Shown here piece by piece: positions 19,280 to 21,206 of a stretch of DNA of 32,000 bases (positions within the stretch are counted from its first letter, which is position 1; each line of letters begins with the position of its first letter). The position numbers were made by a program, and so were the translations under genes. A model generated the notes under the pieces. That model was not told the origin of the DNA. It searched no databases and saw only the letters and a program-made list of their open reading frames with translations. The stretch is from assembly GCF_014396165.1 (NCBI RefSeq), contig NZ_CP060715.1, positions 240,001 through 272,000 of the forward strand, written 5' to 3'. Source of the DNA: Erysipelothrix inopinata (GTDB lineage: Bacteria > Bacillota_I > Bacilli_A > Erysipelotrichales > Erysipelotrichaceae).

Positions 19280-19308
19280 TTGCATTAAACAATTTTTTGA
19301 TTTAATAT
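19280..19308 (+). promoter_or_regulatory. Putative promoter of the TetR/fusion operon
   Basis: TTGCAT (19280-85), a 17-nt spacer, then TAATAT (19303-08). It is immediately followed by the palindrome at 19310-19333. Confidence 0.5.
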
Positions 19309-19351
19309 TAAAAGCGACAATGGTGTCGTTTTTATAGTTGGAGGACATAAT

Positions 19352-19849
19352 ATGAAGGCAAATAATGCAATCAAAGCTATCATCGAATCATCAAAACAGG
19401 TATTTATTACTCAAGGTCTTAATTCTGTATCCATGACTGACATTGTGAATGCCAGTGGTTATAGTCGCGGTGGTGTCTATCGCTACTTCAGTAATGTTGA
19501 TGAAGTGTTCGAAGCATTGATGATGAATGAAATAACAAATCTGAACACTGAAAATTTTGCTTCCTTTAATGATTTTCTACAAACAGAAATTTTCGAACTT
19601 AATAATATTGATCAGACGCTTCGTTTAGCAGGCTATGAATACATGATGCATCATCGCGAAGACTCCACACTCGCTCAATCAATTTTCAAGAAGCATATCA
19701 CACTCATTCAAAATCTAAAGCAATGCTCAGAATCACAAGCACATAAAATATTTGTATTACTTGAGGGCTTGACTGTTCTTAGTTTATCTGGGATTCTTGA
19801 CGATACTACATTACAACAATGCATTAATCTAATTAATCATGAGGTTTAA
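19352..19849 (+). CDS. TetR/AcrR-family transcriptional regulator (short, 165 aa)
   Basis: N-terminal HTH SMTDIVNASGYSRGGVYRYFSN. GGAGG RBS. It ends 5 nt before the next gene. Confidence 0.8.
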   Translation: MKANNAIKAIIESSKQVFITQGLNSVSMTDIVNASGYSRGGVYRYFSNVDEVFEALMMNEITNLNTENFASFNDFLQTEIFELNNIDQTLRLAGYEYMMHHREDSTLAQSIFKKHITLIQNLKQCSESQAHKIFVLLEGLTVLSLSGILDDTTLQQCINLINHEV

Positions 19850-19854
19850 TAATA

Positions 19855-21168
19855 ATGAAAGAATTAAAAACAATACAAAAAGAGACTGGTATTGAATCTC
19901 TAGAACAGGTTCACCATGCATTAATTCTCTTTTATATAAATAAAACGATATCTACTAAAACTATGGCTCAAATGATTAAACTGCCCGTTCCACTCGTCAC
20001 TGCTCTGAAAAAGGAACTTGTTTCCTCCGGATATTTGATAAGGGAAAGCTTCTATGTTTTGAGTTTGAAAGGCATAGAGTATGTGGAATCACAATTGAAT
20101 CTAAAATCATTAGATACGAACCAATATCAATATATATTAGACACTGATTCTAATCGAAACACTTATACTAATATGATAATGGAAACCATCGAACCCTGGT
20201 ATCAAAATCGTCCTACGCCAAAAATGGAATTAGATCAAGCACATGCAACGCGTGAGACTGTAATTCAAAGAGTTATTAAATTAATGGAAGATCCACTAAT
20301 ATTTTCTAAAACCATCGTATTTCTTGGAGATGACGATCTTGTCAGTATTCTTCTATTCAAAGCCATCAATAATCTGGGCGTTATTCCTAATATTACGGTT
20401 CTTGATATCGATACAGATATACTAAATCACGTTGAATCCTTCTCCAACAAAAAAATCATGACACAGATGATCGATTTTAGAGATGAATCAATTTTTATCA
20501 ATATCAAAGCTGACATCATTTTAATGGATCCACCCTATACAATTGCTGGTGTTGAAACATTTACTTCTACTGCCAACAAAATTCTCAATGATCATGGGAA
20601 AGTTTATTTATCAATGAGTCACAAAACAAAATCCGAGCAATTTCAAATTCAAACACTTATCAATCAAAATGGTTGGATGTACACTGAGATATTAGAAAAC
20701 TTCAATAGCTATCTCGGCGGATCTATTATTGGAAATAAAAGTAACTTATACGTTATTCAAACATTTCCGCTCGAAGATTCCGAAACGAGCATGTATACCG
20801 CAGATTCAAGGAAATCAAAGAACTCTATTCAGCTCGGATATCAAGGCATGTATGAGCTTAGAGATTGTGACTACGACACCTTAACGAGCGTTGATGTTGT
20901 AAGAAGATTACTGTACGAGGTTACAACAGAATTTAATCTTCATGCAGTCACTGATGAGTTTCACCAATTTAACCCTTATGGCGTGAGTGGTGCTATCATC
21001 TTACAAGAATCTCACCTTGCGATACACACTTGGCCCGAACATCATTATGCAGCGGTAGATCTCTTCGTTTGCCATCCAGGTCTTAATGAATACAAAGTTC
21101 TAGAATTTCTAAAAGAGAGCTTTAAGGCAAACAGAGCAACAGTTAGAAAAACTAAACGAACAAGTTAA
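19855..21168 (+). CDS. Fusion protein: BpsA/DUF43-like aminopropyltransferase (N-terminal, about 320 aa) plus class 1 pyruvoyl S-adenosylmethionine decarboxylase (C-terminal, about 115 aa)
   Basis: The N-terminal part carries FLGDDDLVS (the GDDD motif of branched-chain polyamine synthase BpsA) and ILMDPPYT. The C-terminal part aligns by eye with B. subtilis SpeD: [31 protein letters not shown]. The self-processing E385/S386 site is at 21007-21012. Confidence 0.7.
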   Translation: [437 protein letters not shown]

Positions 21169-21180
21169 TTTTTTTTGATA

Positions 21181-21206
21181 CAAAAGCGACATCGATGTCG
21201 CTTTTG
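21181..21206 (+). terminator. Terminator after the fusion gene (perfect 26-nt palindrome)
   Basis: CAAAAGCGACATCGATGTCGCTTTTG followed by TATT. Confidence 0.75.

Follow-up and report, generated by a model that had tools for sequence, protein, structure and literature searches.

A recurrent fusion of BpsA-like transferase and class 1b AdoMet decarboxylase domains in Erysipelothrix inopinata, with a putative TetR operator

The characterised branched-chain polyamine synthases (BpsA) come from thermophiles and hyperthermophiles, where branched polyamines aid growth at high temperature. Here we describe a relative of these enzymes encoded in a 32-kb stretch (32,000 nucleotides; the window) of the genome of Erysipelothrix inopinata, a 437-residue protein in which a BpsA-like aminopropyltransferase domain is followed by a class 1b S-adenosylmethionine decarboxylase (AdoMetDC) domain. 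The gene lies directly downstream of a short gene for a TetR/AcrR-family regulator, and copies of one palindrome flank the pair. A first-pass annotation, made from the letters of the window, had proposed that two enzymes are joined in this one open reading frame. Our analysis bears this out: hidden Markov model searches place both PF01861 (BpsA) and PF02675 (AdoMetDC) above their cut-offs, and the structure prediction for the two-domain protein is confident.

Domain architecture and comparison with described enzymes

BpsA (EC 2.5.1.128) is known from T. kodakarensis and Thermus thermophilus (structures 5XNC, 5XNH and 6J27; P. furiosus, 2QM3), and has in common with the protein described here a winged helix and a Rossmann-fold PF01861 domain. 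In the T. kodakarensis enzyme, D159 and D160 bind the aminopropyl amine of decarboxylated S-adenosylmethionine (dcSAM), D225, E259, Y290 and Y316 activate the acceptor nitrogen, and a C-terminal acidic cluster (E339 and D342–E345) carries the aminopropyl group in a ping-pong mechanism (PMC12979288). The class 1b AdoMetDCs, or SpeD (T. maritima TM0655, 1TLU; B. subtilis-type), share with the C-terminal half a complete domain, the Glu-Ser site, and the His and Cys that, as S63, H68 and C83 in T. maritima, serve pyruvoyl formation and catalysis (PMC10407285). They differ in that the decarboxylase is here the C-terminal extension of a 325-residue transferase. After the predicted cleavage, the beta chain would stay on the transferase and the 52-residue pyruvoyl alpha chain would be the free piece.

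Fusions of an AdoMetDC with an aminopropyltransferase have been described in Ca. Pelagibacter, a delta-proteobacterium, Ca. Krumholzibacteria and the ancestor of animal spermine synthase, and both activities of AdoMetDC–SpeE fusions have been shown experimentally (PMC11107197, PMC12803844). Like the E. inopinata protein, they combine producer and consumer of dcSAM in one polypeptide. However, their AdoMetDC is N-terminal and their C-terminal transferase belongs to the SpeE family (PF01564), whereas here the order is reversed and the transferase belongs to PF01861; a Pfam scan of the 437-residue protein gave no PF01564 match. The BpsA-like/AdoMetDC fusion is independent of the AdoMetDC–SpeE fusions and convergent with them. 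SpeD1–SpeD2 fusions, with two pyruvoyl domains (AdoMetDC and ornithine decarboxylase), also place a class 1b SpeD within a bifunctional polyamine enzyme (PMC10407285), although the partner there is a second SpeD homologue and not a transferase. In keeping with the first-pass annotation, which knew of no characterised example in a mesophilic Gram-positive bacterium, we found no description of a BpsA-type/AdoMetDC fusion in full-text literature searches that included a 2026 review of branched-chain polyamines (subscription-only papers were outside their scope). Searches of the same literature yielded nothing usable on polyamines in Erysipelothrix.

The gene and the parts of its product are as follows.

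19855–21168, + strand: fusion gene, 437 codons plus stop, ATG start; predicted BpsA-like aminopropyltransferase and class 1b AdoMetDC (open reading frame call; Pfam, NCBIfam and PDB matches; model)
19855–20154, + strand: winged-helix domain, residues ~1–100 (AlphaFold2 secondary structure H-H-H-H-E-E-H; the profile alignment to 5XNC/2QM3 begins at the N-terminus)
20176–20763, + strand: Rossmann-fold BpsA_C domain (PF01861), residues ~108–303, with GDDD at 20326–20337, DPPYT at 20527–20541 and N284-x-Y286-x-G288 at 20704–20718
20776–20817, + strand: disordered linker, residues 308–321, with the tail motif M-Y314-T315-A-D317-S-R, of which Y314 and T315 are invariant (predicted local distance difference test score, pLDDT, <50)
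20830–21165, + strand: class 1b AdoMetDC proenzyme domain (PF02675, TIGR03330), residues 326–437, with predicted cleavage at E385/S386 (21007–21012), H391 at 21025–21027 and C406 at 21070–21072

The positions first given for GDDD (residues 158–161) and E385/S386 are exact, and the DPPYT motif is present as proposed (residues 225–229). An AlphaFold2 monomer model, built on 45 diverse homologues with 29–49% identity to the query, has a mean pLDDT of 90.9 and a predicted template modelling score (pTM) of 0.72. In Foldseek comparisons of this model with the PDB, BpsA structures rank first (5XNC, 5XNH, 2QM3 and 6J27; E-values of 1e-17 to 1e-13), followed by T. maritima AdoMetDC.

The N-terminal half shows significant homology to BpsA/DUF43; it is no generic methyltransferase. 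It scores 98.6 bits against PF01861 (BpsA_C; cut-off 27) over residues 108–312, and a single-sequence search of the PDB finds T. kodakarensis BpsA (5XNC) with an E-value of 6.4e-17. A subfamily profile made from stand-alone relatives and the N-terminal part of the query matches BpsA structures with E-values of 1e-58 to 7e-60 (2QM3, 7e-60; 5XNC, 9.5e-59). The Foldseek template modelling (TM) score of ~0.52 to BpsA reflects a different orientation of the winged-helix and Rossmann domains rather than a poor fold match. The winged-helix domain, common to BpsA, resembles the dimerisation domain of small-molecule O-methyltransferases, and Foldseek matches to DnrK-type O-methyltransferases cover the entire N-terminal part.

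Invariant residues of the transferase half in the 45-homologue alignment are G158-D159-D160-D161, D225, P227-Y228-T229, N284, Y286, G288 and Y314-T315, and their invariance held in a second alignment. GDDD, the dcSAM-amine clamp of BpsA, is present in 238 of 252 relatives. Together with D225 and Y286 it aligns with GDDD157–160, D225 and Y290 of the T. kodakarensis enzyme, once the 20-residue tag of the 5XNC chain is corrected for. Overall identity to BpsA is only ~23–24%. Motif IV reads DPPYT in 230 of the 252 relatives, compared to DPPET in T. kodakarensis and DPVEG in T. thermophilus, and a tail of the form hYT-[SGA]-[ED]-[VLI]-[KRN], found in 210 of 216 relatives, stands where BpsA has its acidic carrier tail. 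Many stand-alone relatives stop no more than 20 residues away from the hYT motif, some add a CxxC...CxxC zinc ribbon, and the fusions add the AdoMetDC. The zinc-ribbon-like insert occurs after hYT in many members (P0016, P0028 and P0012; Xenorhabdus, Enterococcus and metagenomic), lying between the domains or, in the stand-alone P0156 and P0164, at the C-terminus; the E. inopinata protein is without it.

The linker, with its hYTxD segment, is proposed to be a flexible active-site lid, based on the model; an alignment to the C-terminal lid of T. kodakarensis BpsA was attempted and rejected, as the two are not alignable. Y316 of that enzyme falls outside the part that can be aligned; its counterpart might be the invariant Y314. 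The acidic residues of the linker (LEDSE) are not conserved across the family. By these comparisons, we place the transferase in the BpsA superfamily but in a distinct DPPYT/hYT subfamily, to which the mechanism and acceptor of the T. kodakarensis enzyme should not be transferred. The earlier assignment to the BpsA family holds for superfamily homology and for GDDD; it does not hold in the sense of an orthodox BpsA, since the acidic carrier tail is missing. The name branched-chain polyamine synthase should therefore not be assumed for this separate subfamily.

The C-terminal half is a complete class 1b AdoMetDC domain, as had been proposed. It scores 111.9 bits against PF02675 (AdoMet_dc; cut-off 25), covering residues 333–435 and profile positions 4–106 of 107, and 107.9 bits against the AdoMetDC equivalog TIGR03330 (cut-off 75.65). 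T. maritima AdoMetDC (1TLU) is matched with an E-value of 2.8e-24 by sequence, and by Foldseek with a TM-score of 0.88, an rmsd of 1.6 Å and 40% identity; the central segments of the two are nearly identical. E385-S386, H391 and C406 align with the T. maritima residues (S63, H68 and C83 for Ser, His and Cys), the processing motif being QESH, and S386-H387, H391, W393-P394-E395 and C406 are invariant among 45 fusions. Cleavage at E385/S386 would indeed give the two chains of 385 and 52 residues that had been predicted. Members of the Asgard clade have threonine in place of glutamate just ahead of the processing serine (TSH rather than ESH; for example P0108, at L006 8001–9428); among 165 fusions, this position is Thr in 63 and Glu in 76.

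In nine of the ten nearest stand-alone AdoMetDC relatives sampled, speE directly follows speD. The domain is 44–47% identical to its nearest stand-alone relatives, compared to 41–53% to other fusion clades. Most probably, the C-terminal domain is a true AdoMetDC with S-adenosylmethionine (SAM) as substrate, given the likeness of the central segment, the speD–speE relatives, the lack of extra divergence and its association with a transferase that carries GDDD.

Recurrence of the fusion and its neighbours in other genomes

The fusion protein is identical to WP_187534152.1/QNN61034.1 of E. inopinata, whose genome is complete (2.2 Mb), and independent assemblies contribute 12 near-identical variants. 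Its reading frame is unbroken and the catalytic residues are all intact. A word-indexed search of 5.8 billion proteins yielded 236 relatives, and the best 120 of these all contain both Pfam domains. Named bearers are Erysipelothrix sp. HDW6B (49% identity), Vagococcus fluvialis and V. silagei (42–44%), several Enterococcus species, about 12 Xenorhabdus species (~35%), and many metagenome-assembled genomes (MAGs) of Promethearchaeota, Lokiarchaeota, Hodarchaeota and Thorarchaeota (~30%). E. rhusiopathiae did not turn up among the homologues. An alignment-based genome scan seeded on the AdoMetDC motif, in which most of the 80 loci are stand-alone speD genes, adds Lysinibacillus, Cytobacillus solani, Paenibacillus motobuensis, a Clostridia MAG and Bathyarchaeia. 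Both E. inopinata, whose genome is complete at NCBI, and HDW6B are missing from that scan, and a search of the species-representative genome collection with exact peptide patterns of the query gave no relative.

HMMER searches over 1.84 billion cluster representatives gave only 33 clusters at E ≤ 1e-30. The best 150 representatives comprise 84 stand-alone BpsA-like proteins, 38 transferase–AdoMetDC fusions, 22 stand-alone AdoMetDCs, four SpeD–SpeD proteins and two in which the AdoMetDC comes first; the transferase–AdoMetDC architecture is thus present in at least 38 clusters at 50% identity. The fusion family is real but rare, sparse yet widespread, and Asgard archaea are the largest group among the matches. 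The survey of its spread suggested with the first-pass annotation thus finds the fusion in many lineages, and the pair with tetR in five loci. The remark that no characterised fusion of this kind was known from a mesophilic Gram-positive bacterium stands insofar as no description was found, but the architecture is not peculiar to these bacteria, being present in archaea and Gammaproteobacteria as well.

One of the proteins of reverse order, P0170, was verified by Pfam: an intact decarboxylase (ESH...HTWPE...C) is followed by GDDD, DPPYT and FYT motifs. In Clostridium faecium, the two parts are adjacent separate genes encoding 388 and 136 residues. The two orders of fusion, together with this adjacency, indicate that the two activities work together. 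The similarity of the C-terminal domains is uninformative as to the number of fusion origins, as fused and stand-alone domains interleave at 41–53% identity.

Elsewhere, the fusion gene is usually a singleton without a biosynthetic cluster. In Xenorhabdus griffiniae and X. indica (L004 11748–21310 and L009 5736–8036), a conserved cluster on the opposite strand lies beside it and encodes a fatty-acid desaturase, a saccharopine-dehydrogenase-like protein, a 1480-residue polyketide synthase (PKS) and an 852-residue AMP-binding/carrier protein (fatty acyl-AMP ligase, FAAL). Transposases flank the Xenorhabdus fusion gene (L004 7730–8899; an IS1 element in L012 5934–6272). In a Spirochaetales MAG (L022 3926–5621), a GNAT acetyltransferase gene begins within a stand-alone BpsA-like gene of 413 codons, and no AdoMetDC gene adjoins the two.

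The TetR regulator, its palindromes and the surrounding window

The regulatory features around the fusion gene are listed below.

18994–19068, + strand: tRNA-Gln gene (context), with its own terminator-like hairpin at 19081–19103
19280–19309, + strand: putative sigma-70-type promoter read from the sequence, −35 box TTGCAT (19280–19285), 18-nt spacer, −10 box TAATAT (19304–19309)
19310–19333, no strand assigned: upstream palindrome AAAAGCGACA-atgg-TGTCGTTTTT (in full AAAAGCGACAatggTGTCGTTTTT), probable TetR operator; overlaps the expected transcription start, 6 nt before a GGAGG ribosome-binding site
19352–19849, + strand: gene for a short TetR/AcrR-family regulator, 165 residues, WP_187534151.1 (PF00440 TetR_N, E-value 2.6e-11; orthologues directly upstream of the fusion gene in four other loci)
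21178–21209 (core 21182–21205), no strand assigned: perfect downstream palindrome ATACAAAAGCGACATC/GATGTCGCTTTTGTAT just after the stop codon, core AAAAGCGACAtcgaTGTCGCTTTT; probable intrinsic terminator and second copy of the operator sequence

The regulator matches PF00440 with 43.6 bits (cut-off 24) over residues 10–56, and its best PDB match is B. subtilis YfiR (1RKT, E-value 2e-9). The gap between tetR and the fusion gene is 5 nt, the GAGG ribosome-binding site of the latter lying within the 3′ end of tetR, and the two genes most likely constitute an operon. The coupling to a short TetR gene that had been noted from the window is thus confirmed, and the tetR–fusion pair is kept in four other loci. 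The putative promoter scores below the threshold of a simple consensus scan; a CTTGCA(A/T) box is kept in the Erysipelothrix loci, and X. hominickii has TTGCAA-17-TATATT and HDW6B TATAGT.

The palindrome at 19310–19333, first noted in the window, is real and is kept with TetR across phyla. Its motif has only two matches in 32 kb, where shuffled sequences predict none. In the form AAAAGCGACA-N4-TGTCGCTTTT, it co-occurs with TetR in five loci of Bacillota and Gammaproteobacteria, that is, in E. inopinata and in the following.

Erysipelothrix sp. HDW6B (L001; TetR identity 53%): upstream copy AAAAGCGACAacgaTGTCGCTTTT, overlapping the TATAGT −10 box
Erysipelothrix sp. HDW6B (L001; TetR identity 53%): downstream copy AAAAGTGACAcaatTGTCGCTTTT
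Close relative L007 (TetR identity 95%): upstream and downstream copies with different spacers
Xenorhabdus hominickii (L012; TetR identity 44%): AAAAGCGACAtcatTGTCGCTTTT, after the TTGCAA-17-TATATT promoter
Vagococcus silagei (L008; TetR identity 42%): two tandem upstream copies of a symmetric GTGACA/TGTCAC variant, AAAGTGACA-N4-TGTCA(C/T)TTT

The palindrome is present in five of five TetR-linked loci and missing from the TetR-less loci examined. When the five promoter regions are aligned, its arms are the sole invariant block and the spacers vary. The TetR recognition helix, S38-RGGVYRYF-46, is 100% conserved across the five loci, at an overall TetR identity of 43–51%; the fusion proteins of E. 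inopinata and HDW6B are 49% identical. The downstream copy is Erysipelothrix-restricted, being found in L001 and L007 and not in L008 or L012. This distribution led us to reject, as a general explanation, a mobile two-gene cassette with the palindromes for its terminal repeats, as V. silagei and X. hominickii keep the upstream copy without a downstream one.

Both palindromes could instead act as RNA elements only, the upstream one as a stabilising or attenuating hairpin at the 5′ end and the downstream one as a terminator. The folding results speak for this reading: the upstream palindrome folds with −11.2 kcal/mol (z −4.9) and the downstream one with −20.1 kcal/mol (z −6.3), the latter running into a U-rich tract, and T-runs follow both. 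Two arm substitutions, in the upstream copy of the window and the downstream copy of HDW6B, keep G-U pairs on the + strand, and the V. silagei variant alters both arms in a compensatory manner. However, symmetric changes in two arms are equally expected of a site for a dimeric repressor, and the arm sequence itself, beyond its pairing, is invariant from Bacillota to Gammaproteobacteria despite protein identities of 43–53%. A hairpin function also leaves aside that the palindrome occurs only where TetR, with its invariant recognition helix, is present, that it sits at −10/+1 of a recognisable promoter, and that V. silagei has two tandem copies. We therefore regard a purely RNA-level role as unlikely. 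Since palindrome and TetR are co-conserved across two phyla, a TetR–operator reading is the best one, and the two probably form a regulator–operator pair. Most likely, the downstream palindrome also terminates the operon.

A precedent for a polyamine as TetR ligand is AmvR of Acinetobacter baumannii, a spermidine-sensing TetR-family repressor (PMC12077194, PMC8458285). Both regulators would be tied to polyamine physiology; AmvR differs in controlling an efflux pump, not a biosynthetic enzyme, and it has no close sequence relationship to the E. inopinata TetR, being absent from the PDB matches of the latter.

The pair had been said to sit directly after tRNA-Gln. This is the case in E. inopinata but not in L007, whose fusion protein is 95% identical: at the indel junction (19187/19271), L007 has ~2 kb (1212–3178) in place of 83 bp in the window, and this insertion, between tRNA-Gln and the tetR promoter, holds a LacI-family regulator gene and a PHP-domain gene. 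Homology between the two resumes 9 bp before the −35 box. An island integrated at tRNA-Gln is not supported, as there is no integrase, the GC content of the locus (0.33–0.35) lies within the 0.30–0.39 of the window, and the pair of HDW6B is located elsewhere.

Further features of the window are recorded here. An inverted repeat, TAGACA-acaaa-TGTCTA (21263–21279), overlaps the TATAAT box of a thioredoxin (21302–21616) and Rrf2 (21635–22066) gene pair; its L007 counterpart has another spacer, TAGACA-atata-TGTCTA, and the repeat may be an Rrf2 operator. The region is unusually tRNA-rich, with seven more tRNA genes at 17165–17583, 22415–22488 and 24165–24240: five clustered on the minus strand (Gly, Lys, Tyr, Thr and Val), a second tRNA-Gly(tcc) and a second tRNA-Val(tac). 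A Mutator-family (IS256-like) transposase gene (14237–15424, − strand) lies between a PfkB kinase gene and a gene for a surface protein with Listeria-Bacteroides repeats (11594–14077). Two tandem RpiR-family paralogues (HTH_6 and SIS domains; 4546–5376 and 5435–6220) adjoin a gene for a 1089-residue GH85 endo-beta-N-acetylglucosaminidase with an F5/8 type C domain (958–4227). A 474-residue protein with DUF6630 and DUF1963 is encoded at 22531–23955 (− strand).

Proposed reaction, alternatives and biological meaning

We propose that the locus encodes a TetR-repressed, self-sufficient enzyme that would convert SAM to dcSAM and then to an aminopropylated amine, a reading to which we assign a probability of roughly 65%. 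The C-terminal domain would cleave itself at E385/S386, generating a pyruvoyl N-terminus on the 52-residue chain, which would be held non-covalently to the 385-residue chain, and the pyruvoyl domain would decarboxylate SAM. The BpsA-like domain would then bind dcSAM via GDDD, with D159 and D160 holding the aminopropyl amine, and hand the aminopropyl group over to a nitrogen of the acceptor, an amine placed by D225 and Y228 (DPPYT) and by Y286. The hYTxD segment between the domains (Y314, T315 and D317) would serve as the active-site lid. In sum, SAM and an amine would give an aminopropylated amine, methylthioadenosine and CO2, with no need for separate speD and speE genes. As acceptor, we consider a free di- or polyamine most probable, whether taken up or made in the cell: putrescine, cadaverine, agmatine, spermidine or spermine. 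Aminopropylation would lengthen or branch it. A TetR dimer would bind AAAAGCGACA-N4-TGTCG(C/T)TTTT at the transcription start and repress the operon until released by a ligand, for which the amine substrate and cations related to it are candidates; the second copy of the palindrome, after the stop codon, would at least act as terminator. The data show the domain identities, the conservation of residues, the recurrence of the fusion and the co-conservation of TetR and palindrome; both activities and the self-cleavage are drawn from homology, repression from comparative evidence, and the acceptor, too, is inferred.

Several observations weigh against this proposal. No polyamine synthesis or transport family was found among the window's open reading frames of at least 100 residues by Pfam (four are without a match); the same scans show no speA, speB or speE, as had been noted from the window. 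The relative placement of the domains rests on a monomer-only model, with its pTM of 0.72. The acidic carrier tail of T. kodakarensis BpsA has no alignable counterpart, the profile alignment ending at position 304 of 347, right after FNxY, and E259 of that enzyme falls within an insertion relative to the subfamily profile; a conserved glutamate, E261, is near but unaligned. In favour of an amine product, GNAT acetyltransferase genes are neighbours in three unrelated lineages, V. fluvialis (L002 9362–9796), a Spirochaetales MAG and a Bacillota MAG. Such a neighbour fits an acetylated amine product, but these GNATs are generic, and typing them as polyamine acetyltransferases gave only sub-threshold PaiA and RimI matches.

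The remaining counter-evidence concerns the acceptor. The DPPYT/hYT subfamily might aminopropylate amines tethered to a carrier protein or belonging to a secondary metabolite, or else amino groups on proteins or nucleic acids; its fusion to AdoMetDC would then make a portable, self-powered module. Its motif IV is like that of amino-methyltransferases acting on nucleobases or proteins, with weak resemblance to D12 (a sub-threshold match) and N6-adenine methyltransferases, and the subfamily tail is net basic, not acidic (mean +1.4 over the 12 residues after the motif), with one conserved acidic residue. The 499-residue P0207 joins an N-terminal phosphopantetheine carrier domain to a BpsA-like domain, which hints at a thiotemplate-pathway role for part of the family. 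The Xenorhabdus copies beside PKS, FAAL and nonribosomal peptide synthetase genes likewise hint at non-polyamine acceptors in part of it, and TetR regulators often steer xenobiotic responses. However, BpsA homology spans the full winged-helix and Rossmann domains with the polyamine-contacting equivalents of D225 and Y290 retained, and the winged helix matches the dimerisation domains of small-molecule methyltransferases. Moreover, most copies are singletons, and the Xenorhabdus cluster is on the opposite strand with transposases between. A non-polyamine acceptor is in our judgement improbable. If true, it would represent a new type of modification, and the ligand sensed by TetR would be this acceptor.

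A free di- or polyamine as acceptor of dcSAM is also preferred over two readings that change the chemistry. Arginine or ornithine decarboxylases have arisen repeatedly from SpeD homologues; such neofunctionalisation is widespread and hard to see by overall similarity, and S63, H68 and C83 are kept in all three activities (PMC10407285). Were the C-terminal domain such a paralogue, its product (agmatine or putrescine) would be the acceptor, with dcSAM drawn from another source; no second speD is seen in the window. This is very unlikely, as TIGR03330 is matched above its equivalog cut-off, the nearest stand-alone relatives lie in speD–speE operons, T. maritima AdoMetDC has nearly the same central region, and a GDDD transferase requires dcSAM, the repeated linkage in both orders and by adjacency being best explained by donor supply. 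In the other reading, the 3-amino-3-carboxypropyl group of SAM would be transferred first and the product decarboxylated by the pyruvoyl domain. A fusion would favour channelling in either order, and carboxyspermidine and carboxyspermine are intermediates of other polyamine routes (PMC11999265). This order of events is scarcely credible here: the acidic GDDD pairs with the aminopropyl amine of dcSAM in BpsA, which, going by aminopropyltransferase chemistry, should disfavour the carboxylate of SAM, and the decarboxylase domain has not diverged from SAM-specific enzymes. Nothing was found to favour an artefact of assembly or frameshift, or a gene in decay, beyond the separate genes of C. faecium as a possible ancestral state; these readings are already refuted by the complete-genome copy, the 12 independent variants, the at least 38 clusters, and the intact frame and residues.

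What appears to be new here is a TetR–palindrome pair that travels together across phyla, and a distinct DPPYT/hYT subfamily of BpsA-like proteins. This subfamily occurs in mesophilic Bacillota that live with animals, in Xenorhabdus, which is pathogenic to insects, in Bathyarchaeia and in many Asgard archaea, which points to a wider role of the BpsA family, and the linkage to AdoMetDC in three forms (two orders and adjacency) is strong genomic evidence for the use of dcSAM. The transferase half is invisible in current annotation, since all members met are labelled only 'adenosylmethionine decarboxylase' in the databases. The locus encodes a real, intact and recurrent bifunctional protein, whose predicted activities would come with a portable TetR–operator switch. 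That conserved pair is possibly responsive to polyamines and would offer an experimental handle on the substrate. A single gene of this kind could give organisms without speD and speE a one-step route to spermidine-like, longer or branched polyamines, and the Asgard copies may bear on polyamine supply, for example for hypusine-type modification, in a lineage related to the eukaryotic host.

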